From the IMG/VR virus record IMGVR_UViG_2579779052_000011: a stretch of 31,774 nt of DNA, one strand, 5' to 3'. Both the position numbers and the translations under genes were made by a program. Positions 1-31,774 of the stretch are shown in pieces; positions within the stretch are counted from its first letter, which is position 1, and each line of letters opens with the position of its first letter. Under the pieces are notes generated by a model. The model saw only the letters and a program-made list of their open reading frames with translations. It searched no databases and was not told the origin of the DNA. The DNA comes from a virus (lineage: Duplodnaviria; Heunggongvirae; Uroviricota; Caudoviricetes).

Positions 1-1011
1 TTATAACGTCACTCCGCCTTTTAGTGGATTCAGAGCGACGGCATTTTGCAGATAGTCAGGCGCAAGGTGCGCATAGGCCATCGTCTGCTGAATGCTCGCA
101 TGTCCCAGAATCTGTTGCAGTGCGATTATATTGCCCCCATTCATCATGAAATGGCTTGCGAATGTATGCCGCAGGATGTGGGTTGCCTGATTGGGTGGTA
201 TATCAGGTTTCACTCTGCGTAAAATCCCGCAAAATTTCTCATAATCAACTTTGAATAATTTGGCGCTGGCCTCCTCTTTAACTTTTTTCTCCAGTTCCTC
301 AGAAATCGGCACGGTTCGCTTTTTACCGTTTTTGGTTTTCAGGAAGGTAACCCTGCAATTTGTAATCTGTGCTGGTTTTAGCGTGGCAACTTCCGTCCAT
401 CTTCCTCCGGTGCTCAGACATAAAAGCGCGACAAGTAAGTCATCACCAGCCAAAACATTTAACAGTTTTTCGATTTCTGCTGTTTCCAGGAACGTCATTT
501 CAGGGTTGGCCTCCGCCAGTGGCGGCAGTCCGTGAATTGGGTGTTGCCCGGAAAATTCATCCAATTGAATTAATTTTGTGAACATGCCGGATAATCGGTA
601 CATGTCACGGTTTATCGTTGCGGCACTGATACCATCACGTAGTCGCATGGAACGATAATCCATCAAAGCCCTTTTGCTCATCCTGCTCACTGGTATATCA
701 CCTATGCCGCTGATGGTTTTGAGTAGATGATTAAACTCTTTTGTTCCATGCTCGTGGTTTTGCCCGTGATATTTCCACCAGATGTCCAGCAACTCACTCA
801 AAGTCCGGCGGTCTGCTCGCTGGCCTCCCCATTCGTTCTGACTGGCATTGGCGATTGTGTATCGCTCAAATGCTAGTGCTTCAGCTTTTCTTTCGAATTT
901 CCTGCGGATGCGTTTTCCGTCGCGACCGCGAGGTCTAATGTCCACTTCATAGCGACCATCATCGAGCTTCTTAATTGCCATAAGAAAGCCCTCCGGCGCT
1001 GTATTCACCAT
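1..1011 (-). CDS. int: Tyrosine integrase, P2 Int-like
   Basis: 336-aa ORF with the C-terminal tyrosine-recombinase region (HxLRHTFA...GH...YAH); sits at prophage end next to C. An internal ATG at 981 has a GGAGG RBS and may be the true start. Confidence 0.9.
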   Translation of the reverse strand: MVNTAPEGFLMAIKKLDDGRYEVDIRPRGRDGKRIRRKFERKAEALAFERYTIANASQNEWGGQRADRRTLSELLDIWWKYHGQNHEHGTKEFNHLLKTISGIGDIPVSRMSKRALMDYRSMRLRDGISAATINRDMYRLSGMFTKLIQLDEFSGQHPIHGLPPLAEANPEMTFLETAEIEKLLNVLAGDDLLVALLCLSTGGRWTEVATLKPAQITNCRVTFLKTKNGKKRTVPISEELEKKVKEEASAKLFKVDYEKFCGILRRVKPDIPPNQATHILRHTFASHFMMNGGNIIALQQILGHASIQQTMAYAHLAPDYLQNAVALNPLKGGVTL

Positions 1012-1344: not shown

Positions 1345-1355
1345 TTGACATGGTG

Positions 1356-1399
1356 CCTATATAGGGACTAAATTCCCTCAAAACTGGAACCTATATAGG
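1356..1399. promoter_or_regulatory. Putative operator/promoter repeats of the C-cox lysis-lysogeny switch
   Basis: Two copies of the palindromic decamer CCTATATAGG (1356-1365 and 1390-1399), 34 bp apart, between divergent C and cox. Confidence 0.5.
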
Positions 1400-1465
1400 T
1401 TCCATTGCTTTGAGAATAAACCAGCATCTAAACGGTTTTGAGTGGTTTAGAAAGGGCTGGATCCT

Positions 1466-3509: not shown

Positions 3510-5775
3510 AGCCTCCGGGCGTTTTGTCCCTCCGTCAGCATTTACCGCAGGCACCGGTAAGGCGTTTACCGGTGCTTATGCATGGAACGCGCCACGCGAG
3601 GCTGTCGGGCGCGAAAGACCTCTTACACGTGACGAGATGCGTCAGGTGCAAGGTGTTTTATCCACGATTAACCGCCTGCCTTACTTTTTGCGCTCGCTGT
3701 TTACTTCACGCTATGACTACATCCGGCGCAATAAAAGCCCGGTGCACGGGTTTTATTTCCTCACATCTACTTTTCAGCGTCGTTTATGGCCGCGCATTGA
3801 GCGTGTGAATCAGCGCCATGAAATGAACACCGACGCGTCGTTGCTGTTTCTGGCAGAGCGTGACCACTATGCGCGCCTGCCGGGAATGAATGACAAGGAG
3901 CTGAAAAAGTTTGCCGCCCGTATCTCATCGCAGCTTTTCATGATGTATGAGGAACTCTGCGATGCATGGGTTGATGCGCATGGTGAAAAAGAATCGCTGT
4001 TTACGGATGAGGCGCAGGCTCACCTGTATGGTCATGTTGCTGGCGCTGCACGTGCTTTCAATATTTCCCCGCTCTACTGGAAAAAATACCGTAAAGGACA
4101 GATGACCACGAGGCAGGCATATTCTGCCATTGCCCGCCTGTTTAACGATGAGTGGTGGACTCATCAGCTTAAAGGCCAGCGTATGCGCTGGCATGAGGCG
4201 TTACTGATAGCTGTCGGGGAGGTCAATAAAGACCGTTCTCCTTATGCCAGTAAACACGCCATTCGTGATGTGCGTGCGCGCCGCCAGGCAAATCTGGAAT
4301 TTCTTAAATCGTGTGACCTTGAAAACAGGGAAACCGGCGAGCGCATCGACCTTATCAGTAAGGTGATGGGCAGTATTTCTAATCCTGAAATTCGCCGGAT
4401 GGAGCTGATGAACACCATTGCCGGTATTGAGCGTTACGCCGCCGCAGAGGGTGATGTGGGGATGTTTATCACGCTGACCGCGCCGTCAAAGTATCACCCG
4501 ACACGTCAGGTCGGAAAAGGCGAAAGTAAAACCGTTCAGCTTAATCACGGCTGGAACGATGAGGCATTTAATCCAAAGGATGCGCAGCGTTATCTCTGCC
4601 GTATCTGGAGCCTGATGCGCACGGCATTCAAGGATAATGATTTACAGGTCTACGGTTTGCGAGTCGTCGAGCCACACCACGACGGAACGCCGCACTGGCA
4701 TATGATGCTTTTTTGTCATCCACGCCAGCGTAACCAGATTATCGAAATCATGCGTCGCTATGCGCTCAAAGAGGATGGCGACGAAAGAGGAGCCGCGCGA
4801 AACCGTTTTCAGGCAAAACACCTTAACCGGGGCGGTGCTGCGGGATATATCGCGAAATACATTTCAAAAAACATCGACGGCTATGCACTGGATGGTCAGC
4901 TCGATAACGACACCGGCAGGCCGCTGAAAGACACTGCAGCGGCTGTTACCGCATGGGCGTCAACGTGGCGCATTCCGCAATTTAAAACGGTTGGCCTGCC
5001 GACAATGGGGGCTTACCGTGAACTACGCAAATTGCCTCGCGGCGTCAGCATTGCTGATGAGTTTGACGAGCGCGTCGAGGCTGCACGCGCCGCCGCAGAC
5101 AGTGGTGATTTTGCGCTGTATATCAGCGCGCAGGGCGGGGCAAATGTCCCGCGCGATTGTCAGACTGTCAGGGTCGCCCGTAGTCTGTCGGATGACGTTA
5201 ACGAGTACGAGGAAGAAGTCGAGAGAGTGGTCGGCATTTACGCGCCGCATCTCGGCGCGCGTCATATTCATATCACCAGAACGACGGACTGGCGCATTGT
5301 GCCGAAAGTTCCGGTCGTTGAGCCTTTGACTTTAAAAAGCGGCATCGCCGCGCCTCGGAGTCCTGTCAATAACTGTGGAAAGCTCACCGGTGGTGATACT
5401 TCGTTACCGGCTCCCACACCTTCTGAGCACGCCGCAGCAGTGCTTAATCTGGTTGATGACGATGTTATCGAATGGAATGACCCGGAGGTCGTGAGGGCGC
5501 TCAGGGGCGCATTAAAACACGACCGGAGAACGCCAAACCGTCAGCAAAGAAACGGAAGCCCGTTAAAACCGCATGAAATTGCACCATCGGCCAGACTGAC
5601 CCGGTCGGAACGATTGCAAATTACCCGTATCCGCGTTGATCTCGCTCAGAACGGTATCAGGCCGCAACGATGGGAGCTTGAGGCGCTGGCGCGTGGCGCG
5701 ACCGTAAATTATGACGGGAAACCTTTCACTTATCAGGTCGCTGATGATTGGCCGGGGTTTTTGTTACCCATTTGA
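3499..5775 (+). CDS. A: Rolling-circle replication initiator/endonuclease, P2 gpA-like
   Basis: Large ORF; true start taken as the ATG at 3499 (MAVKASGRF...), which I recognise as the P2 A N-terminus; the listed ORF start at 3457 overlaps the upstream gene. Confidence 0.9.
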   Translation: MAVKASGRFVPPSAFTAGTGKAFTGAYAWNAPREAVGRERPLTRDEMRQVQGVLSTINRLPYFLRSLFTSRYDYIRRNKSPVHGFYFLTSTFQRRLWPRIERVNQRHEMNTDASLLFLAERDHYARLPGMNDKELKKFAARISSQLFMMYEELCDAWVDAHGEKESLFTDEAQAHLYGHVAGAARAFNISPLYWKKYRKGQMTTRQAYSAIARLFNDEWWTHQLKGQRMRWHEALLIAVGEVNKDRSPYASKHAIRDVRARRQANLEFLKSCDLENRETGERIDLISKVMGSISNPEIRRMELMNTIAGIERYAAAEGDVGMFITLTAPSKYHPTRQVGKGESKTVQLNHGWNDEAFNPKDAQRYLCRIWSLMRTAFKDNDLQVYGLRVVEPHHDGTPHWHMMLFCHPRQRNQIIEIMRRYALKEDGDERGAARNRFQAKHLNRGGAAGYIAKYISKNIDGYALDGQLDNDTGRPLKDTAAAVTAWASTWRIPQFKTVGLPTMGAYRELRKLPRGVSIADEFDERVEAARAAADSGDFALYISAQGGANVPRDCQTVRVARSLSDDVNEYEEEVERVVGIYAPHLGARHIHITRTTDWRIVPKVPVVEPLTLKSGIAAPRSPVNNCGKLTGGDTSLPAPTPSEHAAAVLNLVDDDVIEWNDPEVVRALRGALKHDRRTPNRQQRNGSPLKPHEIAPSARLTRSERLQITRIRVDLAQNGIRPQRWELEALARGATVNYDGKPFTYQVADDWPGFLLPI

Positions 5776-5960
5776 GTAAAAATACAGCGTGATTTTATAT
5801 GTCTTTGAATGGATTATGCGAAGCACCTCTAAGGTAGATGAGGAGCAATAGCGTGTTGAATCAGAAGGCTAAATTGTATTGAATCGTTAGCATGTAATTG
5901 AAGGCAGCTATTTGATTCGAGTCATAAAAGAGCATCTATTTCGGTTAATAAAACCATTGC

Positions 5961-6005
5961 GAGTGACTTTATGTCGAAGCATAATTCATCTCGAGCGAAG
6001 TCTTG
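5961..6005. repeat. Direct repeat copy 1 (GAGTGACT...GAGCGAAGTCTTGC)
   Basis: Shares the GAGTGACT start and the 14-bp GAGCGAAGTCTTGC end with 6246-6270, with about 20 extra bp in between. Confidence 0.6.
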
Positions 6006-6037
6006 CTAGTCTTTCATCGGATTGATGACGGGCGCAA

Positions 6038-6069
6038 AAAAACCACCCTGGCAGGTGGTTTTTTTGTTT
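6038..6069. terminator. Bidirectional rho-independent terminator after the early operon
   Basis: AAAAAAA-CCACCCTGGCAGGTGG-TTTTTTT: GC-rich hairpin flanked by an A-tract and a T-tract. Confidence 0.8.
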
Positions 6070-6077
6070 GAAGCATA

Positions 6078-6191
6078 CTAAAGAAAAATACTTACATGGA
6101 TATTACTGACGTTTACTGACAAACCACTCGGACTACCATATGGATAGCCAAAGAGGGCCAGAACGAGAATGCAGTAATAGCACTTCTTCAT
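6078..6191 (-). CDS. Small hydrophobic peptide (37 aa), function unknown
   Basis: ATG with a consensus GGAGG Shine-Dalgarno 5 nt upstream; hand-translated as MKKCYYCILVLALFGYPYGSPSGLSVNVSNIHVSIFL; ends just before the bidirectional terminator. Below the ORF-track size cutoff. Confidence 0.3.
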   Translation of the reverse strand: MKKCYYCILVLALFGYPYGSPSGLSVNVSNIHVSIFL

Positions 6192-6245
6192 ATCGCCTCC
6201 TGTAAGCAGAGGGCAATTTCCGCCGATATATGCGCTTCTAAGGCG

Positions 6246-6270
6246 GAGTGACTATTGAGCGAAGTCTTGC
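6246..6270. repeat. Direct repeat copy 2 (GAGTGACTATTGAGCGAAGTCTTGC)
   Basis: Shares the terminal 14-bp GAGCGAAGTCTTGC and the GAGTGACT start with 5961-6005. Confidence 0.6.
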
Positions 6271-6848
6271 CCTGAAATAATGCTCTGTTTAAACGCAAAG
6301 TGATCTGGCATATCACCGAACAGAGGACCTGAACAACACAACATATAGTATGTCGTTGTTTCTGGTTGCATTTTATGTTGTGTAATACTGGTTTTGCATC
6401 AAGGATGTTTGAGCTTTTTTTGATATAGCTCAAAGTAAAAAGCAGAGACTACGGATGATAAGGTCTTGAAAGCAATGTAAATTTTTTAAAGTTGTGAGTG
6501 GCTAGAAATGCACAGTTTCAATATGGCGGATTTAAACAAGTAATTAAAAATAGCGACATAAATTCCAATAAAATCATTAAGTTGCGTTTTCTGTGGAAAC
6601 TTCGGTGACTCTGAAATTTTCTTTTAGTGTCGCTGAGGTTTAACAACGCGCTGCGCAAGTAGTTAGTGTTTTTTTAACTCAATATTCTGATTTATAAGGT
6701 TTTTTATAAATCGTGGGCTGGTTGCGCGTATTCATCTCGTGTTATCAGCAAAGATAAGCTCTATATGCAGAACGGAATGCATATATGATGTCGAAAATGT
6801 TATGGGAAAACGTGGATTAGTGTTATAGTAATGGCTGAAAAACAGCCT

Positions 6849-6877
6849 TGACATAAAATAACAACTGTGATATGGCT
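6849..6877 (+). promoter_or_regulatory. Putative sigma70 promoter for the cargo peptidase gene
   Basis: TTGACA at 6849-6854, 17-bp spacer, TATGGC -10-like hexamer; TAGGAGG RBS at 6901-6907. Confidence 0.4.
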
Positions 6878-6912
6878 GTGCATACTTAACTTTTTTAACG
6901 TAGGAGGCAACC

Positions 6913-7398
6913 ATGAGCTATGCAGCTAAAAAACTGCTTGACCGCTATTGGGATCGCCGACTACCTGTCGATCCGTTTAAGCTTGCTAAAGCGTGGGGTG
7001 CTCGTGTTGAAGCACTTGAGGAATCGGCTTATAACAACGATGGGTTAAGCGGTCTGGCTGTCATCAAAAAGGGTGTCCATAGGATTTATTTTGATTCTAG
7101 TGAACATTCTAATCGTCAACGTTTTACTGTTGCACACGAGTTAGGTCATCATGTGCTGGGGCATACCCAGGACGGAGAGTACCATCGGGATAATGTCGGG
7201 AATTATTCAACAGGTGCTCGTGATTACCGTGAGGTTGAAGCAAACAAGTTTGCTGCTGAGTTGTTAATGCCTGAGTCTGCTATACGTCAATTGGTATCCA
7301 GAGAAGGTATTGATAGCACTTTGAGATTAGCAAGCATCTTTAATGTATCAGAAGCCGCTATGCATTGGCGCTTAAAGAGCTTAGGAATGGCTTATTAA
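6913..7398 (+). CDS. ImmA/IrrE-family (DUF955) zinc metallopeptidase
   Basis: 161-aa ORF with HEXXH (HELGHH) and the downstream family motif EANKFAAELLMPE; strong RBS; AT-rich. Confidence 0.8.
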   Translation: MSYAAKKLLDRYWDRRLPVDPFKLAKAWGARVEALEESAYNNDGLSGLAVIKKGVHRIYFDSSEHSNRQRFTVAHELGHHVLGHTQDGEYHRDNVGNYSTGARDYREVEANKFAAELLMPESAIRQLVSREGIDSTLRLASIFNVSEAAMHWRLKSLGMAY

Positions 7399-7426
7399 TT
7401 AGCCTTTAACTTTTAACCTGTTTAAA

Positions 7427-7465
7427 ATCACCTTTACGTTTGTACATGTAAGGGTGATTTTTTTA
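7427..7465 (+). terminator. Rho-independent terminator or attenuator after the peptidase gene
   Basis: 10-bp stem (AUCACCUUUA / UAAGGGUGAU, one G-U pair) followed by a run of 7 T; ends at the start codon of the next ORF. Confidence 0.6.
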
Positions 7466-8064
7466 TGGCTGATATTGATTTATCTGGACAGTCCCCAGAG
7501 CAAGGAACCACTCCTAAGGGCGATTTAGATCCTGATATCCTTATAAGGCGAGATAGACGGGATGGTATAGAGCGTAGAAGCATGCGATTAGTGCTCTCTG
7601 CCGTTGTGCTTTGTTTTGCTTGTACATTTCTATGGCAGGGGCTTAACTTTGCTTTGGCTGTTGGAAATGGCTTGCTGGAAGCGAAAAGCAGTATTGCCGC
7701 AGCGATAACACAAAAAGTAGATACACAAACTTGTGTTTCAGCAGAAAAATGTTCTGCTTTATCTTCGGATCCGAAGATGGCTGATGAGAGGATAACACCA
7801 TCTTCAGACACTAATAAAGTTAGAAAATCTATTTCTGGTTTATCCACCGATTGGTTATCGGCCAGTTCTCTAATAGCTATTGTTGCATTCATCCTTGGTG
7901 TGGGTTTAACTTTGCTTTTGACTCTTCTTAAATCAGCATTTCAACACCCGACAGATAAAGACTTTAGAACAAAGTCGACATCTAATACTATTGAGTTGGC
8001 CACGCCAATCAGTGAATTAATAATTGGTGTTCTGAATATAATTAAAGACAAACTATCTAAGTAA
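7465..8064 (+). CDS. Hypothetical membrane protein with two predicted TM helices
   Basis: 199-aa ORF; hydrophobic segments LVLSAVVLCFACTFLW and LIAIVAFILGVGLTLLLTLL; no recognisable RBS; followed by a terminator. Confidence 0.45.
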   Translation: MADIDLSGQSPEQGTTPKGDLDPDILIRRDRRDGIERRSMRLVLSAVVLCFACTFLWQGLNFALAVGNGLLEAKSSIAAAITQKVDTQTCVSAEKCSALSSDPKMADERITPSSDTNKVRKSISGLSTDWLSASSLIAIVAFILGVGLTLLLTLLKSAFQHPTDKDFRTKSTSNTIELATPISELIIGVLNIIKDKLSK

Positions 8065-8106
8065 AGCATTAGTTGTGATTTTTTATTGGTTTTAGTGATA
8101 ATACAT

Positions 8107-8139
8107 CTCCAGTACTTATTGTTACTGGAGAGTATTTTT
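8107..8139 (+). terminator. Rho-independent terminator between convergent cargo genes
   Basis: Perfect 8-bp stem CTCCAGTA...TACTGGAG followed by AGTATTTTTA. Confidence 0.6.
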
Positions 8140-8146
8140 AGTCGTT

Positions 8147-9088
8147 TTATATTTTTAATGTTAGTGAATGATATTCACGAGAGTTCACGTTCGATGTGAT
8201 GTAATCGGGGGCGTTAACACCAAGAATCGCAACGAGTAATCGGCAAATTAAAGCCTGCATTTGTTGTAATATGTCATCTCCATATTGATAATTGTTAATA
8301 GTGGTAAAGCCAAGTGGTTGACCATGAAACATAGCTTCATGAAAGTTTTCATTGCGGATGTTTGTAATGTTTTTTTTGCCTGTAACCCATGATGGTCGTG
8401 GTATTCCATAAGTTTTGCAGATCCACTTCAAGCGCCTGGAGTGATTTAGAGTCTTTTCTGTACACTTGTTCTTTTCTGCCCATGTTAAAGCAAAGCAACT
8501 ATCCAGTGCCATATAAAGATACTGGAATTTTTCGAAGCTAAGGTATTGTGGGTTTTGGGATAAAAATAGTGCATGCACTATTGCTGCTATATTTATTGGT
8601 GCGTGTTTGGTTTTTGTCTCGCTAGACATGTATTTGAGTGCTAATTCTATAACCTCTTTTTCAGAGCACTTGACCAGAATAAAGTCAGTTAATTTGCTAG
8701 GTTTTATTGGGGTTGCGTCTAAAAAACCGGCATCAGTAGTTGTTAATCTTATCCCTTTGAAAAAAGACAGACACCACACAGCAAAATTGAGAGTTTCTAG
8801 TGAAGATGTATTTTTTAATTTTAGTGAGTGTGTTTTGGGTAAGCCAAATACTCGTTGGCTAAAAGGCATTGTGGATATGCCTCCATTGAGGTTATATACT
8901 TCTTGGTTTCCTGGGTATATCCAACCGTTAATAACATTTCTGTGATTGTTTATAAGATTTGTTTTTTCCGCTAGACCGGGTAAAGTAAGTAAAGAAAAAT
9001 CATCAGTTTCAACGTTAACTTCTACTGGATAGTATCCAAACTCAGCTTCAATATCATTGGATTGCTGTTCGTCAACTTTACCTTGCAT
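8147..9088 (-). CDS. Hypothetical 313-aa protein in the old/tin hotspot; possible HEPN-like Rx4H motif; candidate defence effector
   Basis: AT-rich ORF with GGAG RBS 8 nt upstream; occupies the cos-proximal slot where P2 has old; C-terminal IRNENFHEAMFHG motif. Confidence 0.6.
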   Translation of the reverse strand: MQGKVDEQQSNDIEAEFGYYPVEVNVETDDFSLLTLPGLAEKTNLINNHRNVINGWIYPGNQEVYNLNGGISTMPFSQRVFGLPKTHSLKLKNTSSLETLNFAVWCLSFFKGIRLTTTDAGFLDATPIKPSKLTDFILVKCSEKEVIELALKYMSSETKTKHAPINIAAIVHALFLSQNPQYLSFEKFQYLYMALDSCFALTWAEKNKCTEKTLNHSRRLKWICKTYGIPRPSWVTGKKNITNIRNENFHEAMFHGQPLGFTTINNYQYGDDILQQMQALICRLLVAILGVNAPDYITSNVNSREYHSLTLKI

Positions 9089-9200
9089 ACATTGCTCCGG
9101 TCAAAAATAGGCTCGATAATTCTCGTAAGCCTATCATGTTCGCAAAGTATCCATACCTGTGGATTTTGTAAATTTAAGTTGATTTGTCATTAAATAAGCC

Positions 9201-9212
9201 GTTGCATGCAAC
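9201..9212. repeat. Perfect 12-bp palindrome GTTGCATGCAAC upstream of the 313-aa gene
   Basis: Direct reading; lies in the promoter region of the minus-strand cargo gene. Confidence 0.5.
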
Positions 9213-9326
9213 AAGTGAATGTTTTTGCATGCGTCGGGGATGTCCGTTCAGGCTGCGTGCGGTCAGGACTGGTGCGGATCCATAGTATCTATGCAACTGC
9301 ATTAAAACTGCCCCATGAAGCGGGCG

Positions 9327-9345
9327 GGCGAGGCGGGGAAAGCAC
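9327..9345. other. cos: cos site (19-nt cohesive end GGCGAGGCGGGGAAAGCAC)
   Basis: Exact match to the P2 cohesive-end sequence as I recall it; located immediately upstream of Q as in P2. Confidence 0.8.
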
Positions 9346-9488
9346 TGCGCGCTGGCGGTGGTGCTGATTTTATTTTTTCAGCGTCTGAGCGCGTCTTGAT
9401 GGCGTTTAGATTGTGCGCCGGGGCGTTGGTGTGTCTGCGGGGTATTTTGTGCGGTGGTGAGCGTGTGAGGGCGTGATGACGGGGTGTA

Positions 9489-9512
9489 AAAAAGCCGCCC
9501 GCAGGCGGCGAT
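9489..9512 (-). terminator. Terminator downstream of Q (minus strand)
   Basis: GCCGCC-CGCA-GGCGGC hairpin followed by a T6 run on the minus strand, just past the Q stop. Confidence 0.6.
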
Positions 9513-9514
9513 GT

Positions 9515-10549
9515 TCAGCCGTTGTCAGTGTCCAGTGAGTAGTTTTTAAAGCGGATGACCTCCTGGCCGAGCCAGCCGTTTATTTCCCGAATCCTGTCCT
9601 GTAACGGGATAAGTTCATTGCGGACAAAGACCTTTGCCACTTTCTCAATATCACCCAGCGACCCGACGTTCTCCGGCTTGCCGCCCATCAACTGAAAGGG
9701 GATGCGGTGCGCGTCCAGCAGGTCAGCGGCGCTGGCTTTTTTGATATTAAAAAAATCGTCCTTCGTTGCCACTTCACTGAGCGGGATAATTTTAATACCG
9801 TCGGCTTTCCCCTGCGGGGCATAGAGAAACAGATTTTTAAAGTTGTTGCGGCCTTTCGACTTGACCATGTTTTCGCGAAGCATTTCGATATCGTTGCGAT
9901 CCTGCACGGCATCAGTGACGTACATGATGTATCCGGCATGTGCGCCATTTTCGTAATACTTGCGGCGGAACAGCGTGGCCGACTCATTCAGCCAGGCAGA
10001 GTTAAGGGCGCTGAGATATTCCGGCAGGCCGTACAGCTCCTGATTAATATCCGGCTCCAGCAGGTGAAACACGGAGCCGGGCGCGAAGGCTGTCGGCTCG
10101 TTGAAGGACGGCGCCCACCAGTAAACATCCTCTTCCACACCACGGCGGGGATATTTTGCCGGTGAGGTTTCCAGTCTGATGACCTTACCGGTGGTGCTGT
10201 AACGCTTTTCCAGAAACGCATTACCGAACACCAGAAAATCCAGCACAAAGCGGCTGAAATCCTGCTGGGAAAGCCACGGATGCGGGATAAATGTTGAGGC
10301 CAGAATATTACGTTTGACGTAAATCGGTGAGCTGTGATGCACGGCAGCACGCAGGCTTTTTGCCAGACCGGTAAAGCTGACCGGTGGTTCATACCATCTG
10401 CCGTTACTGATGCACTCGACGTAATCCAGAATGTCACGGCGGTCGAGTACCGGTACCGGCTCGCCAAAGGTGAATGCCTCCATTTTCGGGGTGCTGGCGG
10501 TCATTTTTTTTGCCGCAGGTTGCGGTGTTTTCCCTTTTTTCTTGCTCAT
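9515..10549 (-). CDS. Q: Portal protein, P2 gpQ-like
   Basis: 344-aa ORF, same length as P2 Q; N-terminal lysine-rich region; adjacent to cos. Confidence 0.9.
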   Translation of the reverse strand: MSKKKGKTPQPAAKKMTASTPKMEAFTFGEPVPVLDRRDILDYVECISNGRWYEPPVSFTGLAKSLRAAVHHSSPIYVKRNILASTFIPHPWLSQQDFSRFVLDFLVFGNAFLEKRYSTTGKVIRLETSPAKYPRRGVEEDVYWWAPSFNEPTAFAPGSVFHLLEPDINQELYGLPEYLSALNSAWLNESATLFRRKYYENGAHAGYIMYVTDAVQDRNDIEMLRENMVKSKGRNNFKNLFLYAPQGKADGIKIIPLSEVATKDDFFNIKKASAADLLDAHRIPFQLMGGKPENVGSLGDIEKVAKVFVRNELIPLQDRIREINGWLGQEVIRFKNYSLDTDNG

Positions 10550-20654: not shown

Positions 20655-21258
20655 TTCGCGCCTGCTGCCGACCGGCTCATCACCGCTTGAAGTTGCCGCC
20701 GCAAAAGCCTGTGCGGAAATTGAAAAAACGCCGGTCAGTATTCGTGAGCTGTGGAACCCGGATACCTGTCCGGCAAATCTGCTGCCGTGGCTGGCGTGGT
20801 CATTTTCGGTTGACCGCTGGGATGATAAGTGGCCGGAAGCGACAAAACGCGCTGTTATCCGCGATGCGTATTTCATTCACTGCCATAAGGGCACTATTGG
20901 TGCGATTCGCCGTGTGGTGGAGCCGCTCGGCTATCTGATTGAGGTGAGGGAGTGGTGGCAGCTCAACGAGGAGCCGGGGACGTTCCGCATCGTTGTTGGC
21001 GTGCTTGAGCAGGGTATTACCGAGGAAATGTATCAGGAGCTGGAGCGTCTCGTTGCTGATGCAAAACCTGCAAGCCGCCATCTGACGGGACTGGCTATCA
21101 GTTTAAGTACAACCGGCAACATTTTTGCCGGTGCGGGATGCTATCACGGCGACGCCCTGACGGTTTATCCCTACACCCCGGAGGCCATTATTGTCGGAGG
21201 GGATTATTTCCCGGCCTCGGCCATTCATTTAATTGATAACCTGAGAGTAAACGCATGA
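20647..21258 (+). CDS. I: Baseplate protein, P2 gpI-like
   Basis: 203-aa ORF overlapping the J stop; longer than the length I recall for P2 I. Confidence 0.8.
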
Positions 21259-22454
21259 CAGTGAAATACTACGCCATTCTGACTAATCAGGGCGCGGCAC
21301 GGCTGGCTAACGCGACGATGCTCGGCAGTAAGCTGAATCTGACGCAAATGGCCGTTGGTGATGCAAATGGTGTCTTGCCGACACCAGACCCGGCACAGAC
21401 AAAACTTATTAACCAGAAACGCATCGCGCCGCTGAATCTTCTGAGTGTTGACCCGAACAACCAGAGCCAGATTATTGCGGAGCAAATCATCCCTGAGAAC
21501 GAGGGCGGATTCTGGATCCGTGAGATTGGGCTTTATGATGATGAAGGCGTACTCATTGCGGTGGCGAACTGCCCGGAAACGTACAAACCGCAGTTGCAGG
21601 AAGGCAGTGGTCGTACCCAGACTATCCGCATGATTCTGGTTGTCACGAATACCGAAGCTATCACGCTGAAAATCGACCCGTCGGTGGTACTGGCGACCCG
21701 TAAATACGTGGATGATGAAGTCCTGGAATTAAGGCTGTATGTGGATGACCAAATGAGAAACCACATTGCCGCACAGGACCCTCATACCCAGTATGCACAG
21801 AAACATAATCCGACATTTACCGGAGAACCAAAAGCGCCGACGCCTGCCGCAGGAAATAACACCACGCGGATTGCGACCACTGAGTTTGTTCAGGCCGCTA
21901 TTACCGCTCTGATTAACGGTGCGCCAGCCACGCTGGACACACTGAAAGAAATTGCCGCAGCCATTAACAATGACCCGAAATTCAGTACCACCATTAACAA
22001 TGCGCTGTCAGGTAAGCAGCCACGGGACAATACGCTGACTAATTTGAGTGGAAAGGATGTAGCTGGTCTTCTCGCATACCTTGGTTTGGGAGAAGCGGCA
22101 AAACGGGGGGTGGGAACAGGGGAAAATCAGATACCGGACATGGCTTCATTTAGTGGGGTGAGGGATTATTACGGAAAACAACTTTTGCCAGGAGGGTTGA
22201 TACTTCAGTGGCTGACGATTCCATCAAGTGCAGCAGCCAAAGCTGTAACACTGAATAATGGTAATTATCAGCTGTCAGGCTATAAATGGCCCCAGTCATT
22301 TGGTGTCCTGTTTGCTGTGTTTGCTACAAAAGTTTCTGGCTCGACTAACGAAGCATATGCAATCTCAGTTAATCGTCACTCTACCGATGTAATTGTCACC
22401 TGGAATGCCCGTAAGGCTGATGATGTCCACATTTTAGGAATTGGGAAATTATGA
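21255..22454 (+). CDS. H: Tail fibre protein (H-like conserved N-terminus plus a variable C-terminal domain encoded inside the invertible segment)
   Basis: 399-aa ORF; the part after about 22082 lies inside the invertible segment. Confidence 0.85.
22069..22094. other. Putative invertase crossover site, left (gix/hix-like)
   Basis: TTCTCGCATACC-TT-GGTTTGGGAGAA inside the H coding sequence; inverted partner at 23655-23680. Confidence 0.5.
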
Positions 22455-22870
22455 AAATGAAATGGTCCCCATCTGTTCAGGGATTTTTCTCTGAAAATAA
22501 CAGCGATATTCCCGATGATGCTTTCGATATTGAAGATGCTCTTTATTATGAACTTATGAATGGTCAGAGTACGGGGAAAATTATTATCAATAACCCGGAT
22601 AACTACCCTGTACTTACTGAATATCCAGCGAAGACACAGGAACAGGAAATAGCTGAAGCGGAGGGAATGAAAAGTATACTTATTGAACAGGCCAACGAAT
22701 ACATGAACAGTAAGCAATGGCCTGGTAAAGCCGCTATTGGTCGTCTGAAAGGTGAGGAACTGGCGCAATATAATTTGTGGCTGGATTATCTGGACGCACT
22801 GGAACTGGTTGATACCTCCAGTGCTCCAGATATTGAATGGCCTACGCCTCCGGCAGTTCAGGCCAGATGA
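22451..22870 (+). CDS. Tail fibre assembly chaperone (currently expressed orientation)
   Basis: 139-aa ORF immediately after H; C-terminus ...[11 protein letters not shown] resembles the Tfa family. Confidence 0.8.
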
Positions 22871-23273
22871 CATCCGGCGCAGGGGAAGTATCTACCGCTT
22901 CCAATTTCTTGGCATAACTCCGCCAGGCTATGAGCCTGGCTTTATCTGCATCGCTGATAATTCCGAGCAGTAAATCAGTCTGCCATTCACGAACAGCTTC
23001 CGCAGATTCGGCCATTAGCTGCGCTTTTTGGTTTTCTGCCTCCTGCACTGCGATAGCGTGAAGCTCATCATCTGTTGGAGGCGGAATATCTTCCCACGCA
23101 GGCAAACCATCAGCACCCGGCACACGTCGCTTCCCGTCGTTTTCTCCGATAAAAAATTCTGCAAAAATCTCGTTCGAAACAGGGACGGCATCAGTAAATG
23201 CGTCTGTTTTCAGTAAAGTACTTCCTGCAGCAATGAACACATTCTTTTTTGCGCTGTAATAGTAACTGGTCAT
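22842..23273 (-). CDS. Alternative tail fibre assembly chaperone (inverted orientation)
   Basis: 143-aa ORF, convergent and overlapping the plus-strand tfa by 29 bp; similar C-terminus ...[10 protein letters not shown]. Confidence 0.75.
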   Translation of the reverse strand: MTSYYYSAKKNVFIAAGSTLLKTDAFTDAVPVSNEIFAEFFIGENDGKRRVPGADGLPAWEDIPPPTDDELHAIAVQEAENQKAQLMAESAEAVREWQTDLLLGIISDADKARLIAWRSYAKKLEAVDTSPAPDVIWPELPEA

Positions 23274-23708
23274 TTACACTCTCCCTACGGCAATCCAGTG
23301 CGCCGTTGCTGAGCCGCCCTTGAACGTTTTATCTGCTCCCTGCCACCAGATCGAGCGGAACCCGAAAGAGGTTGTTCCCAGCGATTGAGCACCATAGATC
23401 ACTAACCCTGAGTACACGTTCCCGGACGAAACCCAGTTCGACACCGCAGATTCCCCCGTCAGAACGCTATAGAAACTCATCGCAAGGCCAAGGTTCACGG
23501 TCGCAAATCCATTTGCATCTGTAGACACCTTACCGCCCTGAATAACAATGCCTCCCGGCAGTTGCATCACAAAGGCATTAACGTTGCCTGTAACTGTGAA
23601 TGATGACATATCCGGCACTTGGCCCGTTCCGGTTCCAACATCTTTTTTGGCTGCTGTTCCTAAACCAACGTTTAAGAAAATGCAGAGATTACGGCTAACT
23701 GGCATCAT
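23274..23708 (-). CDS. Alternative tail-fibre C-terminal (receptor-binding) domain, silent in this orientation
   Basis: 144-aa ORF whose N-terminal region (GLGTAAKKDVGTGTGQVPDMSSF) parallels H residues [23 protein letters not shown]; no promoter of its own. Confidence 0.7.
   Translation of the reverse strand: MMPVSRNLCIFLNVGLGTAAKKDVGTGTGQVPDMSSFTVTGNVNAFVMQLPGGIVIQGGKVSTDANGFATVNLGLAMSFYSVLTGESAVSNWVSSGNVYSGLVIYGAQSLGTTSFGFRSIWWQGADKTFKGGSATAHWIAVGRV
23655..23680. other. Putative invertase crossover site, right (gix/hix-like)
   Basis: Reverse complement reads TTTTCTTAAACG-TT-GGTTTAGGAACA, matching the left site in the core and right half. Confidence 0.5.
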
Positions 23709-23735
23709 CCCCGGTTTTTATTCAGGGGATCCATC

Positions 23736-24329
23736 ATGCTTATTGGCTATGTCCGCGTGTCAACAAATGACCAGAATACGGAATTGCAGCGTAACGCGCT
23801 GGAGTGTGCAGGATGTGAGCTGATTTTTGAGGATAAAATCAGCGGCACGAAGTCCGACAGGCCGGGACTGAAAAAACTGCTCAGGACATTATCGGAGGGG
23901 GATACACTGGTAGTCTGGAAGCTGGACCGGCTGGGGCGTAGTATGCGGCATCTGGTTATTCTGGTTGAGGAGCTGCGCGAACGCGGCATTAATTTTCGCA
24001 GCCTGACGGATGCCATTGATACCAGCACGCCGATGGGACGTTTTTTCTTTCATGTGATGGGTGCCCTGGCTGAAATGGAACGAGAACTCATTGTCGAGCG
24101 GACTCGCGCCGGACTGGAAGCGGCCAGAGCCAAAGGTCGTATTGGTGGCAGACGTCCGAAGCTCACCGCGAGTGAGTGGGAACAGGCAGGACGGTTGCTG
24201 GCTGCGGGTGAATCACGTCAACGCGTGGCGCTGATTTTTGATATTGGCCTGTCCACGCTCTATAAAAAATTCCCCTCATCAGCGACAAAGAATAAATTGT
24301 GTCATCCCTTAGCCAACCGGGACAAATAG
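23736..24329 (+). CDS. Serine recombinase / DNA invertase (Hin/Gin/Cin/Pin family)
   Basis: 197-aa ORF with the resolvase N-terminal motif (GYVRVST, catalytic Ser) and a C-terminal HTH; adjacent to the invertible fibre segment. Confidence 0.9.
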   Translation: MLIGYVRVSTNDQNTELQRNALECAGCELIFEDKISGTKSDRPGLKKLLRTLSEGDTLVVWKLDRLGRSMRHLVILVEELRERGINFRSLTDAIDTSTPMGRFFFHVMGALAEMERELIVERTRAGLEAARAKGRIGGRRPKLTASEWEQAGRLLAAGESRQRVALIFDIGLSTLYKKFPSSATKNKLCHPLANRDK

Positions 24330-26594: not shown

Positions 26595-29034
26595 CAATGT
26601 AAAATTACAGGTATTGCTCAGGGCTGTTGACCAGGCATCCCGCCCGTTTAAATCCATCCGCACAGCGAGCAAATCGCTGTCGGGGGATATCCGGGAAACA
26701 CAAAAATCACTGCGCGAGCTGAACGGTCAGGCATCCCGTATTGAGGGATTTCGCAAGACCAGTGCACAGCTCGCCGTGACTGGTCATGCACTTGAAAAGG
26801 CTCGACAGGAAGCCGAAGCCCTTGCCACACAGTTTAAAAACACCGAACGTCCGACCCGTGCTCAGGCGAAAGTGCTGGAATCCGCAAAGCGTGCGGCGGA
26901 GGACTTACAGGCGAAATATAACCGCCTGACGGATTCCGTTAAACGCCAGCAGCGGGAACTGGCCGCTGTGGGAATTAATACCCGCAATCTTGCACATGAT
27001 GAGCAGGGACTGAAAAACCGTATCAGTGAAACCACTGCCCAGCTTAACCGGCAGCGTGACGCGCTGGCGCGTGTCAGTGCGCAACAGGCAAAACTTAACG
27101 CAGTCAAACAGCGTTATCAGGCCGGCAAGGAACTGGCCGGAAATATGGCCTCAGTGGGCGCTGCCGGTGTGGGGATTGCGGCGGCGGGAACGATGGCCGG
27201 AGTTAAGCTGCTGATGCCCGGTTATGAGTTTGCGCAGAAAAACTCAGAATTACAGGCTGTGCTCGGAGTGGCAAAAGACTCCGCCGAAATGGCCGCGCTC
27301 CGCAAACAGGCGCGCCAGCTCGGCGACAACACCGCCGCCTCGGCGGATGATGCAGCCGGTGCGCAGATTATCATTGCAAAAGCCGGTGGGGATGTTGATG
27401 CCATTCAGGCGGCAACGCCGGTCACGCTGAATATGGCGCTGGCGAACCGTCGCACGATGGAAGAAAACGCCGCCCTGTTGATGGGGATGAAATCCGCCTT
27501 TCAGCTTTCAAACGATAAGGTCGCTCATATCGGGGATGTTCTCTCCATGACGATGAACAAAACCGCCGCCGATTTTGACGGCATGAGCGATGCGCTGACC
27601 TATGCCGCACCTGTGGCAAAAAATGCCGGTGTCAGCATTGAAGAAACCGCCGCAATGGTCGGGGCGCTGCATGATGCAAAAATCACAGGCTCAATGGCGG
27701 GGACGGGAAGCCGTGCCGTGTTAAGTCGCCTGCAGGCACCGACGGGAAAAGCATGGGATGCACTCAAAGAGCTTGGAGTGAAAACCTCAGACAGCAAGGG
27801 GAATACCCGACCAATATTTACCATTCTGAAAGAAATGCAGGCCAGTTTTGAGAAAAACCGGCTCGGTACTGCCCAGCAGGCTGAATACATGAAAACCATT
27901 TTCGGTGAGGAGGCCAGTTCAGCAGCCGCCGTGCTGATGACTGCCGCCTCAACCGGAAAGCTGGACAAACTGACCGCTGCGTTTAAAGCCTCAGACGGGA
28001 AGACCGCAGAGCTGGTAAATATCATGCAGGACAACCTCGGCGGTGACTTTAAGGAGTTTCAGTCCGCTTATGAGGCGGTGGGGACTGACCTGTTTGACCA
28101 GCAGGAAGGCGCACTACGTAAGCTCACGCAGACGGCCACAAAGTATGTGTTAAAACTCGACGGCTGGATCCAGAAAAACAAATCACTGGCGTCAACCATT
28201 GGCCTCATTGCCGGTGGCGCGCTGGCGCTGATTGGCATCATCGGTACAATTGGTCTTGTAGCCTGGCCGGTTATCACCGGCATCAATGCCATCATCGCGG
28301 CAGCAGGCGCAATGGGGGCAATCTTCACGACGGTTGGCAGTGCTGTTATGACCGCCATCGGGGCTATTAGCTGGCCGGTTGTGGCTGTGGTGGCTGCCAT
28401 TGTCGCCGGGGCGTTGCTTATCCGTAAATACTGGGAGCCTGTCAGCGCATTCTTTGGCGGTGTGGTTGAAGGGCTGAAAGTGGCATTTGCGCCGGTGGGG
28501 GAACTGTTCACGCCACTTAAGCCGGTGTTTGACTGGCTGGGTGAAAAGTTACAGGCCGCGTGGCAGTGGTTTAAAAACCTGATTGCCCCGGTCAAAGCCA
28601 CTCAGGACACCCTGAACCGTTGCCGTGACACGGGGGTCATGTTCGGGCAGGCACTGGCTGACGCGCTGATGCTGCCGCTTAATGCGTTCAACAAACTGCG
28701 CAGTGGTATTGACTGGGTACTGGAAAAACTCGGTGTTATCAACAAAGAGTCAGACACACTTGACCAGACCGCCACCAGAACTCAAGCCGCCACGTATGGC
28801 AGCGGTGGTTATATTCCGGCGACCAGCTCTTATGCAGGCTATCAGGCTTATCAGCCGGTCACGGCACCGGCTGGCCGCTCTTATGTGGACCAGAGTAAAA
28901 ACGAATATCACATCAGCCTGACGGGTGGCACTGCGCCGGGGACACAGCTTGACCGCCAGTTACAGGATGCGCTCGAAAAATACGAGCGGGATAAACGTGC
29001 GCGCGCTCGTGCCAGCATGATGCATGACGGTTAA
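26587..29034 (+). CDS. T: Tail tape measure protein, P2 gpT-like
   Basis: 815-aa ORF with a coiled-coil N-terminus and Gly/Ala-rich hydrophobic region. Confidence 0.9.
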   Translation: MSNNVKLQVLLRAVDQASRPFKSIRTASKSLSGDIRETQKSLRELNGQASRIEGFRKTSAQLAVTGHALEKARQEAEALATQFKNTERPTRAQAKVLESAKRAAEDLQAKYNRLTDSVKRQQRELAAVGINTRNLAHDEQGLKNRISETTAQLNRQRDALARVSAQQAKLNAVKQRYQAGKELAGNMASVGAAGVGIAAAGTMAGVKLLMPGYEFAQKNSELQAVLGVAKDSAEMAALRKQARQLGDNTAASADDAAGAQIIIAKAGGDVDAIQAATPVTLNMALANRRTMEENAALLMGMKSAFQLSNDKVAHIGDVLSMTMNKTAADFDGMSDALTYAAPVAKNAGVSIEETAAMVGALHDAKITGSMAGTGSRAVLSRLQAPTGKAWDALKELGVKTSDSKGNTRPIFTILKEMQASFEKNRLGTAQQAEYMKTIFGEEASSAAAVLMTAASTGKLDKLTAAFKASDGKTAELVNIMQDNLGGDFKEFQSAYEAVGTDLFDQQEGALRKLTQTATKYVLKLDGWIQKNKSLASTIGLIAGGALALIGIIGTIGLVAWPVITGINAIIAAAGAMGAIFTTVGSAVMTAIGAISWPVVAVVAAIVAGALLIRKYWEPVSAFFGGVVEGLKVAFAPVGELFTPLKPVFDWLGEKLQAAWQWFKNLIAPVKATQDTLNRCRDTGVMFGQALADALMLPLNAFNKLRSGIDWVLEKLGVINKESDTLDQTATRTQAATYGSGGYIPATSSYAGYQAYQPVTAPAGRSYVDQSKNEYHISLTGGTAPGTQLDRQLQDALEKYERDKRARARASMMHDG

Positions 29035-29048: not shown

Positions 29049-29528
29049 ATGATGCTCGCGTTAGGTATGTTTGTTTTTATGCGCCAGACGCTGCCACACC
29101 AGACCATGCAGCGTGAATCAGATTATCGCTGGCCGTCAAATTCCCGTATCGGTAAACGGGACGCTTTTCAGTTTCTCGGTGTGGGTGAGGAAAACATCAC
29201 GCTGGCCGGTGTGCTTTATCCCGAACTGACCGGCGGCAAGCTGACGATGACCACGCTCAGGCTGATGGCAGAGGAGGGGCGGGCGTGGCCGTTGCTGGAT
29301 GGCACCGGCATGATTTACGGCATGTATGTCATCAGCAGGGTGAGTGAAACAGGGAGTATTTTCTTTGCAGACGGCACACCCAGGAAAATTGATTTTACGC
29401 TGTCACTCACCCGCGTTGATGAATCACTGGCCGCGCTTTATGGCGATATCGGTAAACAGGCGGAATCGCTCATCGGTAAGGCCGGCAGTATGGCGACCAG
29501 ATTCACAGGTATGACGGGGGCGGGATAA
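29049..29528 (+). CDS. U: Tail protein, P2 gpU-like
   Basis: 159-aa ORF. Confidence 0.85.
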   Translation: MMLALGMFVFMRQTLPHQTMQRESDYRWPSNSRIGKRDAFQFLGVGEENITLAGVLYPELTGGKLTMTTLRLMAEEGRAWPLLDGTGMIYGMYVISRVSETGSIFFADGTPRKIDFTLSLTRVDESLAALYGDIGKQAESLIGKAGSMATRFTGMTGAG

Positions 29529-30691
29529 TGCTGGATGCGCTGACATTTGATGCAGGCAGTACGCTGACGCCGGATTACATGCTGATGCTCGACAGCAGGG
29601 ATATTACCGGCAATATCAGCGACCGTCTGATGAGCATGACCCTGACGGATAACCGGGGCTTTGAGGCTGACCAGCTTGATATTGAACTGAACGATGCCGA
29701 CGGGCAGGTCGGGCTGCCGGTTCGTGGCGCTGTCCTGACGGTGTATATCGGCTGGAAAGGTTTTGCCCTGGTATGCAAAGGGAAATTTACCGTTGATGAG
29801 GTTGAACACCGGGGCGCACCGGATGTAGTCACCATCCGCGCCCGGAGTGCAGATTTTCGCGGGACGCTCAATTCCCGCCGGGAAGGCTCCTGGCATGACA
29901 CCACGCTCGGTGCGATTGTTAAGGCGATAGCCACCCGTAACAGGCTGGAAGCCAGTGTCGCTCCGTCACTGGCCGGAATAAAAATTCCACACATCGACCA
30001 GTCGCAGGAGTCTGATGCAAAATTCCTGACCCGCCTTGCTGAACGCAACGGCGGTGAGGTGTCGGTAAAAATGGGAAAATTGTTGTTTCTCAAAGCGGGG
30101 CAGGGGGTGACGGCCAGCGGTAAAAAAATCCCGCAGATTACCATCACCCGCAGCGACGGCGACCGTCATCATTTTGCGATTGCTGACCGTGGAGCTTACA
30201 CCGGCGTAACGGCAAAGTGGTTACATACCAAAGACCCGAAGCCGCAAAAGCAGAAGGTAAAACTGAAACGCAAAAAGAAAGAAAAACACCTGCGCGCACT
30301 GGAGCACCCGAAAGCGAAACCGGTCACGCAGAAGAAAGCGCCAAAAGTACCGGAAGCGCGCGAAGGTGAATACATGGCCGGTGAGGCTGACAACGTTTTT
30401 GCCCTGACCACGGTATATGCCACGAAAGCGCAGGCCATGCGCGCCGCTCAGGCGAAGTGGGATAAACTGCAACGGGGTGTAGCGGAGTTCTCCATCAGCC
30501 TGGCTACCGGTCGGGCAGATATTTACACGGAAACACCGGTCAAAGTGTCAGGCTTTAAGCGTGTCATAGACGAGCAGGACTGGACAATCACTAAGGTGAC
30601 ACATTTTCTGAATAATAGCGGCTTCACGACGTCCTTAGAGCTTGAGGTAAGGCTTTCTGATGTGGAGTACGAAACCGAAGATGATGAGTGA
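29528..30691 (+). CDS. D: Late control / tail protein, P2 gpD-like
   Basis: 387-aa ORF. Confidence 0.9.
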   Translation: MLDALTFDAGSTLTPDYMLMLDSRDITGNISDRLMSMTLTDNRGFEADQLDIELNDADGQVGLPVRGAVLTVYIGWKGFALVCKGKFTVDEVEHRGAPDVVTIRARSADFRGTLNSRREGSWHDTTLGAIVKAIATRNRLEASVAPSLAGIKIPHIDQSQESDAKFLTRLAERNGGEVSVKMGKLLFLKAGQGVTASGKKIPQITITRSDGDRHHFAIADRGAYTGVTAKWLHTKDPKPQKQKVKLKRKKKEKHLRALEHPKAKPVTQKKAPKVPEAREGEYMAGEADNVFALTTVYATKAQAMRAAQAKWDKLQRGVAEFSISLATGRADIYTETPVKVSGFKRVIDEQDWTITKVTHFLNNSGFTTSLELEVRLSDVEYETEDDE

Positions 30692-30773: not shown

Positions 30774-30992
30774 ATGTTTCATTGTCCTTTATGCCAGCAT
30801 GCCGCACATGCGCGTACAAGTCGCTATATCACTGACACGACAAAAGAGCGTTATCACCAGTGCCAGAACGTGAATTGCAGCGCCACGTTCATCACTTATG
30901 AGTCGGTACAGCGATACATCGTGAAGCCGGGAGAAGTCCACGCCGTGAGGCCGCACCCGTTGCCGTCAGGGCAGCAAATTATGTGGATGTAA
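30774..30992 (+). CDS. ogr: Zinc-finger late gene transcription activator Ogr
   Basis: 72 aa from the ATG at 30774 (MFHCPLCQH...CQNVNC...), GGAAGAGG RBS; the listed longer ORF starts upstream. Confidence 0.9.
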   Translation: MFHCPLCQHAAHARTSRYITDTTKERYHQCQNVNCSATFITYESVQRYIVKPGEVHAVRPHPLPSGQQIMWM

Positions 30993-31001
30993 TTACAAAC
31001 A

Positions 31002-31034
31002 GAAAGCCCCTCAGTCGAGGGGCTTTCTGTTTTG
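31002..31034 (+). terminator. Rho-independent terminator after ogr
   Basis: AAAGCCCCTC-AGTC-GAGGGGCTTT hairpin followed by CTGTTTT. Confidence 0.8.
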
Positions 31035-31132
31035 GGGAATATTCTTCATTAAAAGTAGTGGATCACGTTTAATAAACTATGTTTATCATATACTTAAAAG
31101 TAACTTTTTAAAGTTGGACAGGTTGGTGGAAA

Positions 31133-31774
31133 ATGGAAAAAGTTATAATTGAGCTTGATAATCGTTGGGAGTTAGCTGATTTCGCGGTCTTAACGAAAGA
31201 GTATTTGCAGCTATATGGTTTTTTTTATGGCCTAAAAGGAGGATCAAGAGGATATTCAACAATGCCTTGGGAGGGTGGGCACAGTGTAGTGAACTTTTTT
31301 AGAGGGGCTTACAGTGCGACTCCACCAGATTTACGTCCTGTAGTGAAAAAAATTCAGTATGCCTCTCCTGGCTTTATTGAATTGTCTGCTCTTATTGATA
31401 TCTCTTGGCAGATTGCTGAGTTAGTTACTGCTGTTGGTGGAAGTATTCTGGCTGCCAACAAAGTTTACGATCAGGTGATGCGTACATATCGACAAAGAGA
31501 ATGGGCAAAGTTGAAATCAGAGAAGCTGCGTATACAGAATCAAATTAAAGAGATTGAACTTGTTTCTGACGCAGTTAAATCACTTGAATCTGTGATGGCA
31601 CTTAGTGAAGAACAACGTAAAAACTTGGTTCAACTATCGGGGGCAGATGAACTGGTTCAGTTAAAGATACTTTTGGCTGTTTACCGACGGTTATCTCCTC
31701 TTGTTGAGTTGCAAAACAGCGGGAAAGCTAATTTTTCTGCAGGGAAAAATAAAAATTTAAAAGCGTCCGATTAA
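31133..31774 (+). CDS. Hypothetical 213-aa protein, AT-rich, beyond the ogr end of the prophage
   Basis: Complete ORF (ATG to TAA at the window end) with GGTGGA RBS; C-terminal half looks coiled-coil; no homolog recognised. Confidence 0.55.
   Translation: MEKVIIELDNRWELADFAVLTKEYLQLYGFFYGLKGGSRGYSTMPWEGGHSVVNFFRGAYSATPPDLRPVVKKIQYASPGFIELSALIDISWQIAELVTAVGGSILAANKVYDQVMRTYRQREWAKLKSEKLRIQNQIKEIELVSDAVKSLESVMALSEEQRKNLVQLSGADELVQLKILLAVYRRLSPLVELQNSGKANFSAGKNKNLKASD

Follow-up and report, generated by a model that had tools for sequence, protein, structure and literature searches.

A stand-alone relative of the PD-T4-10B C-terminal domain as cargo beside the attachment site of Wphi-type P2-like prophages

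The AT-rich reading frame for 213 amino acids (ORF213) at the right end of the viral DNA analysed here, a stretch of 31,774 nucleotides that we call the window, lies almost certainly within the prophage, as cargo just inside attR, and its product is homologous to the C-terminal half of the toxin PD-T4-10B. On the basis of this homology we lean, with modest confidence, towards a prophage-borne role in defence. The coordinates of the features discussed are collected in Table 1.

The window comprises an entire P2-like prophage, of the type that integrates as Wphi does, inserted between cpxP and fieF. Its limits have been found to be two stop codons, that of the integrase gene int (position 1) and that of ORF213 (31774), and because the window has been clipped at these codons, both attachment sites are absent from it. 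The integrase shares 320 of 326 residues (98%) with that of phage Wphi, as befits a tyrosine integrase of Wphi specificity. Numerous complete genomes of E. coli contain the final 782 bp of the window unchanged (100% identity), and at least 80% of this segment is present in 158 genomes. On the left side of the prophage in NZ_CP025859.1, the order is cpxA, cpxR, cpxP and then the integrase gene, with attL after cpxP and with 99.5% identity between the int side and window 1-1400; on the right side, it is D, ogrK, a hypothetical 213-aa protein, fieF and pfkA. In the window, gene D (29528-30691) is likewise located upstream of ogr.

Table 1. Features at the two ends of the prophage (window positions unless a locus is named).
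Feature	Position	Strand	Remarks
Integrase gene	1..984	-	stop codon 1-3; left-most gene; attL beyond the left edge of the window
ogr, late-gene activator	30774..30992	+	last backbone gene; annotated ogrK (WP_000468308.1) in an identical genome
ogr intrinsic terminator	30997..31032		16-bp GC-rich stem, U-rich tail
AT-rich cargo module (38% GC, ~760 bp)	31027..31774, on to ~31786 (12 nt past the window)		between ogr terminator and Int arm repeats
Leader / presumed promoter region, 100 nt, AT-rich	31033..31132	+	GGTGG run 3 nt before ATG
ORF213	31133..31774	+	213 aa, 24 kDa, pI 9.1; stand-alone PD-T4-10B C-terminal-domain homologue
8-bp hairpin over ORF213 stop	31762..31774 in the window, left arm and loop; full 31762-31783 (L001 6770-6791)		-14.5 kcal/mol, z -5.3
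47-bp att core copies	attL: L003 4133-4179; attR: L001 6865-6911		attR copy equivalent to window 31857-31903

The first-pass annotation had expected attR between the ogr terminator and ORF213, within 31035-31132. No attR core has been found in this interval, and attR lies wholly outside the window. The two junctions in NZ_CP025859.1 share a single long exact direct repeat, GACACCATCCCTGTCTTCCCCCACATGATGTGGGGGTTTTTTTTATC (47 bp), whose left copy is located 23 nt past cpxP and whose right copy is located 83 bp to the right of the ORF213 stop, before fieF; the window-equivalent position of the right copy has been taken from genomes that share the last 782 bp at full identity and not from the source contig. 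The true right end of the prophage is found ~130 bp past the window edge. The comparison of the junctions proposed at first pass has therefore had the outcome that had been named there as pointing to phage cargo, namely a core on the right-hand side of the ORF.

The occupied and the empty state of the site have been compared by matching the segment that runs from ORF213 through the 47-bp repeat into fieF against the complete E. coli genomes. All 5,426 of them match this query, 160 along its entire length, and in prophage-free genomes the match starts exactly at the first base of the 47-bp repeat and runs into fieF, which is the appearance of an empty attB. Because of these empty-site matches the 47-mer is identified as the att core and ORF213 is placed inside the element. 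Of the two origins initially considered for ORF213, cargo at the att-proximal end is the one borne out by the position of the core and by the empty sites. The other, a gene of a neighbouring island or of the host with attR lying between the ogr terminator and ORF213, could draw on the compositional break right after the terminator and on the location of attP directly after ogr in P2 and Wphi, but it has become hardly credible: the core lies to the right of ORF213, prophage-free genomes match from the core on and lack ORF213, Int arm repeats stand between ORF213 and the core, and wherever ORF213 has been found in E. coli, it adjoins the ogr terminator on one side and attR-fieF on the other.

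The surroundings of the core agree with a P2-type attP. Between ORF213 and the core we have found GATGTGGACGCTATGTGGACAG, which contains two TGTGGAC arm repeats for Int, and between the core and the int stop GTGTGGACACTATGTGGACAC, in which the P' arm repeats adjoin the int stop. [quoted passage not shown] The P arm together with the core is 97% identical to attP of Wphi and is also present in L-413C, for which a shared Wphi attP core has been reported (PMC3448106), and in ~60 other Peduovirus records. The order of the element is ogr, terminator, the ~760-bp module with ORF213, two TGTGGAC repeats, the 47-bp core (attR) and fieF.

The 47-bp core also coincides with the distal cpxP 3' UTR and its terminator, from which the sRNA CpxQ is made, with the exact ends of CpxQ as given by Chao and Vogel (2016). 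Integration restores the cpxP 3' UTR at attL, and a second copy of its 3' 47 nt ends up downstream of ORF213 at attR. Owing to this second copy, the transcript of the cargo may end in a CpxQ-like tail. Searches with Rfam at attL and around ORF213 and attR have returned nothing over the gathering score and only sub-threshold terminator-like matches. CpxQ has been located in the 145-bp intergenic region between cpxP and fieF (PMC4817254), and a literature search by gene names has found no account of an att site between these two genes.

On its left, the cargo module is bounded by the terminator of ogr. The succession of ogr and a terminator, which had been recognised at first pass, is confirmed by the ogrK annotation in an identical genome, by the hairpin itself and by identity with P2: window 30993-31026 (34 nt) agrees at 100% with the annotated terminator stretch of P2 (AF063097). 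In RNA folding, the hairpin has reached -28.3 kcal/mol (z = -6.4), with 0 of 200 shuffles as good, and with its GC-rich stem and U tract it has the build of a Rho-independent terminator, albeit one missed by a simple consensus terminator scan. As it is T-rich on either side, the terminator probably works in both directions.

The module behind this terminator is variable. The attR P-arm side is present in 664 of the 5,426 E. coli genomes and ORF213 in only 158-160, the total of empty slots being an estimate from a junction query that is confounded by P2 remnant similarity. In four sampled genomes that lack ORF213, ogr is followed by the terminator plus 10 nt and then directly by GATGTGGACGCTATGTGGACAG; the matches of ORF213-less genomes to the attR side begin 12 nt past the ORF213 stop, from which the extent of the module as listed in Table 1 follows. 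The slot of phage Wphi is likewise empty, its terminator region leading straight into the arm repeats. Despite the likeness between Wphi and the present prophage in Int, in P arm and core, and in the P' arm repeats next to the int stop, only 41 bp separate ogr from the arm repeats in Wphi, against the ~760-bp module here, and the ogr terminator of Wphi is of its own type, whereas that of the window is of the P2 type.

A different occupant of the slot has been observed in E. coli A13 (NZ_CP028761.1), namely an ORF of 133 aa that lies on the opposite strand and whose product has a hydrophobic N-terminus (L025 1591-1992), for which neither Pfam nor PADLOC has given a match. The A13 sequence occurs in 44 genomes, 27 at ≥95% identity and 17 as a ~78% variant, with the location in the slot checked in A13 only. 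The slot states seen are two cargo alleles and the empty form. Outside E. coli, D and ogr are followed in a P2-like prophage of Kosakonia arachidis by a 217-aa orthologue of ORF213 with 77% identity, by repeats resembling the arm sites, and by the same core. Judged by this sequence context, ORF213 appears as accessory cargo (a moron) in a variable slot directly outside a functional attP, and from the att geometry it would be packaged and move with the phage. A tblastn search of ORF213 against 50,697 phage records (INPHARED) has given no match. The record of Salmonella phage STYP1 (KX833211.1 / NC_073747.1) ends, at 28808-28946, with 97% identity over the 140 nt upstream of ORF213 and stops at the base before the ORF213 ATG; this 'complete genome' is probably a prophage that has been cut off at the edge of a gene, and its right end may be missing. 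An att-proximal gene for lysogenic conversion is exemplified by ctx of phiCTX, a P2-like phage of Pseudomonas, which lies beside attP. As in that case, ORF213 is a lone foreign gene with its own expression signals at attP, with product and host being unrelated.

Proximity to attP is also the one feature that would speak for a function of ORF213 in phage integration or excision or in late regulation. We consider this very improbable, given that ORF213 is absent from Wphi and from ~75% of the prophages using the same Int and att, that the family occurs in many non-P2 contexts, and that its model has no match to a DNA-binding fold.

Two hotspots for defence genes have been described in P2-like phages, #1 between the replication gene A and the portal gene Q (old, tin) and #2 at Z/fun, with the tail fibre genes on one side and the tail sheath gene on the other (Rousset et al., 2022, PMC9122126; Vassallo et al., 2022, PMC9519451). 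ORF213 resembles their contents in being AT-rich cargo that is present or absent within a conserved P2 backbone, but it follows D and ogr at the att end and hence occupies the location of neither #1 nor #2. Hotspot #1 is far more diverse than the slot between ogr and attP, with its two alleles and the empty form, and the texts of both hotspot-defining papers (PMC9122126, PMC9519451) do not mention this slot. In the window, hotspot #1 corresponds to 5776-9514, an AT-rich region (34-44% GC) that is flanked by gene A (3457-5775) and, on the minus strand, by the portal gene (9515-10549). It contains an ORF of the Peptidase_M78/ImmA-like type (6913-7398; PADLOC capP, 1e-30; RmrA-like) as well as two ORFs that match no family (7465-8064, 199 aa; 8147-9088, minus strand, 313 aa), and its content is probably another defence candidate. 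A further variable region, window 22076-24329, is likely an invertible segment for tail fibres and host range. Similar peptides mark the start of the fibre gene's C-terminal part (gene at 21255-22454) and of an ORF on the other strand (23274-23708), the second peptide being VGLGTAAKKDVGTGTGQVPDMSSF, and they lie at inverted sites located at ~22076-22087 and ~23662-23673; each version of the fibre is accompanied by its own tail-fibre assembly-like ORF, and a gene for a 197-aa serine invertase is found at 23736-24329. A general inverted-repeat search has not picked up these inversion sites.

Turning to ORF213 itself, the contrast between an AT-rich ORF and a GC-richer backbone, as pointed out at first pass, has been quantified as 39.7% GC against 55.3% in the late region. 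An exhaustive search has yielded homologues in 394 clusters at E≤1e-3, and the comparison with the Kosakonia orthologue has given pN 0.12 and pS 0.76, which indicates purifying selection; by these measures ORF213 qualifies as a real gene. For its expression, a promoter is presumed in the AT-rich leader because of the strong terminator upstream; a promoter scan of 31033-31132 has detected no convincing sigma-70 consensus. The upstream region of the Kosakonia orthologue is unrelated to that of E. coli, and no upstream non-coding sequence is conserved. The hairpin at the ORF213 stop has a T-run on the minus strand only (TTTTAAATTTTTATTTTT), and in the circular phage it would terminate transcription coming from int through attP and not that of ORF213 itself. 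At the corresponding place of the Kosakonia orthologue there is a hairpin that resembles a terminator in both directions.

The AF2 model of the protein (pLDDT 87) comprises helices at 88-103, 105-154, 159-169 and 173-195, and the invariant residues G48, G49, S51, S78, P79 and G80 are all found in the N-terminal subdomain; K178 and R185 are invariant as well. The product would be soluble and basic, with a small alpha/beta subdomain, which is conserved, ahead of the long helices. Since no segment reaches the hydrophobicity of a transmembrane helix (maximum Kyte-Doolittle value 1.35), a function in the membrane or as a holin has been rejected. Nothing above noise has been obtained for ORF213 in Pfam, PHROGs and NCBIfam, nor in Pfam for any of the 67 aligned family members; a sequence profile search of the PDB has given no match, and the model has matched no known fold. 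The coiled-coil-like C-terminus that the first-pass annotation had described reappears as the helical C-terminus of the model, but its verdict that there was no clue to function does not hold, as the protein is matched by the PADLOC models for PD-T4-10_B. All three of these models match ORF213 (PDLC04024, 1.3e-34; PDLC04025, 7e-23; PDLC04026, 3e-19), and with PDLC04024 the match covers profile positions 139-346 of 353, i.e., the C-terminal half only, along the whole of ORF213.

PD-T4-10, a TA-like system obtained by functional selection, is encoded by two overlapping ORFs, of which B is toxic when expressed alone and is neutralised by A (Vassallo et al., 2022, PMC9519451). For the system of ECOR65, B has been shown to be needed for abortive-infection defence against T-even phages, and DUF6575 is among the new defence domains of the same study (PMC9519451). 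The likeness of ORF213 to this system consists of the matches to the B profiles and of two conserved motifs, PW(R/E)GGxSxVNF and QYASPGxIEL, that it has in common with the long members of its family; PD-T4-10 in Pseudomonas is moreover located, as is ORF213, at that end of an integrated element where att or the integrase gene lies. The difference is that ORF213 is a single gene, with no A gene, no DUF6575 and no conserved neighbour. Pfam has detected no DUF6575 in ORF213, in which the alignment to the B profile starts only at position 139. PADLOC has found no PD-T4-10_A among 14 non-backbone or early ORFs of the window, and a tblastn search of the window with the A-like protein of Pseudomonas has given nothing. 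Directly upstream of ORF213 there are 100 non-coding nt and then ogr, with no A gene (~148 aa) that would abut or overlap. Since both the A gene and DUF6575 are lacking, the ORF213 locus is not a PD-T4-10 system but encodes a single-domain relative, and PADLOC would call no system there, the canonical partner and domain being absent.

The family as a whole shows how the two halves of PD-T4-10B are combined. Short forms (205-243 aa) consist of the ORF213-type domain alone. Long forms (320-370 aa) have the same domain at their C-terminus behind an N-terminal domain, which Pfam identifies as DUF6575 in many of them, and they span the entire PADLOC B profile; their overlapping upstream gene encodes ~115-145 aa. 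There are also proteins with DUF6575 alone (~175 aa) and fusions of DUF6575 with unrelated C-domains, and these match positions 1-135 of the B profile only. The overlapping gene upstream of a DUF6575-only protein matches the PD-T4-10_A model at 1.4e-29. In a neighbourhood survey of 45 loci with one genome per species, an A-like gene has been found upstream of all 6 long forms, and ~35 intact short forms have shown no conserved neighbours. Because the A model matches beside a DUF6575-only protein, because every long form in the survey has A, and because the short forms have no shared neighbour, we infer that A is partnered by DUF6575, with the C-domain as an autonomous unit that can be separated from both. 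Different C-domains occur behind an unchanging pair of A and DUF6575, which suggests that the C-domains are the effectors; pairs of A with DUF6575-only proteins suggest the opposite.

An alignment of PD-T4-10A-like proteins (A3: L026 2568-3014, L023 4591-5001 and five others) has revealed invariant residues (C17-P-P, R31, F43, C66, S72, G112 and H122), a pattern that seems to suit a metal-binding or catalytic protein better than a simple antitoxin. The Pseudomonas-type A proteins have been found too divergent for the PADLOC A model.

The short forms are widely distributed. Besides the ogr-att slot of P2-like prophages in E. coli and Kosakonia, they have been found at the end of a P2/HP1-like contig, in a Pseudomonas prophage directly before a candidate defence gene (PDC-S21/DUF4917), in integron-like cassette arrays of Vibrio, and in an island with Schlafen-like and Shedu (SduA_C) genes. 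In Enterobacter (L004 3409-6708, L018 3749-5708), a 235-aa homologue, 59-60% identical to ORF213, lies in an island between an aldose epimerase gene and gapA. This island contains an opposite-strand gene of the ogr/delta family, variable genes with no assigned function and 0.9-1.9 kb of uncalled sequence upstream of the homologue, and it is possibly a satellite or the remnant of a prophage.

Since its product is a stand-alone copy of one half of PD-T4-10B, ORF213 is most likely a defence gene. In a lysogen, a promoter of its own, located past the ogr terminator, would drive its transcription, and the transcript would end at the cpxP-type terminator in the attR core (CCCCCACATGATGTGGGGG followed by T8). 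The product would act as a single-gene anti-phage factor, by abortive infection or exclusion, against unrelated phages, and it would work through the module that PD-T4-10B has as its C-terminal half. No PD-T4-10A antitoxin would be required, because A partners the DUF6575 half, which ORF213 does not have. The toxicity of PD-T4-10B when expressed alone (PMC9519451), together with the lack of a protein partner of ORF213, could be taken to mean that ORF213 is an orphan toxin, silenced by an RNA antitoxin, by tight repression or by autoinhibition, with stabilisation of the prophage or addiction as its main role. We regard this as doubtful, although worth keeping in mind: neither a conserved neighbour nor a conserved upstream non-coding sequence has been found, the Kosakonia upstream region being unrelated; Rfam has given no match above threshold; A goes with DUF6575, so that the C-domain would not be the part in need of neutralisation; and three quarters of the prophages at cpxP-fieF do without ORF213.

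As ORF213 is phage-borne and has kept only the helical or oligomer-like half in common with PD-T4-10B, with neither DUF6575 nor A, an anti-defence function may also be envisaged, in which a truncated, antitoxin-independent C-domain would co-assemble with host PD-T4-10-type proteins or compete against them and so shield the phage or the lysogen. This is unlikely in view of the location of ORF213, which is behind a strong terminator at the lysogenic-conversion end and not in an early lytic operon, and in view of the family, in which the short forms far outnumber the long ones (~35 against 6 of the 45 species loci) and occur also outside phages, in integron cassettes and chromosomal islands; the invariant residues of the N-terminal subdomain suggest, in addition, an activity of its own. 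An extended form of the idea, that short ORF213-type proteins in general are carried by phages as decoys for PD-T4-10-type systems, or as their partners in trans, and plug into or poison the A-DUF6575 modules of the host, strikes us as quite unlikely as well. If it were true, one domain would be both weapon and counter-weapon, and the slot between ogr and attP would be a third, unnoticed conflict locus of P2-like phages. A defence function of ORF213 itself is the reading we retain.

For the delimitation of prophages, the present case implies a correction, as tools that clip at gene ends conceal both att sites. For the Wphi-type P2-like phages, it adds to the two hotspots already published a further slot for cargo, located between the terminator of ogr and the arm sites for Int, which is filled in about one quarter to one third of the E. 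coli prophages at cpxP-fieF. For PD-T4-10, it suggests that the system splits into separable parts, A with DUF6575 on the one hand and, on the other, a C-domain that would be autonomous, widespread, encoded by a single gene and of no known fold. The 213-aa gene would consequently offer a simple experimental handle on which half of PD-T4-10B does what, and it is a candidate for a new single-gene defence system.
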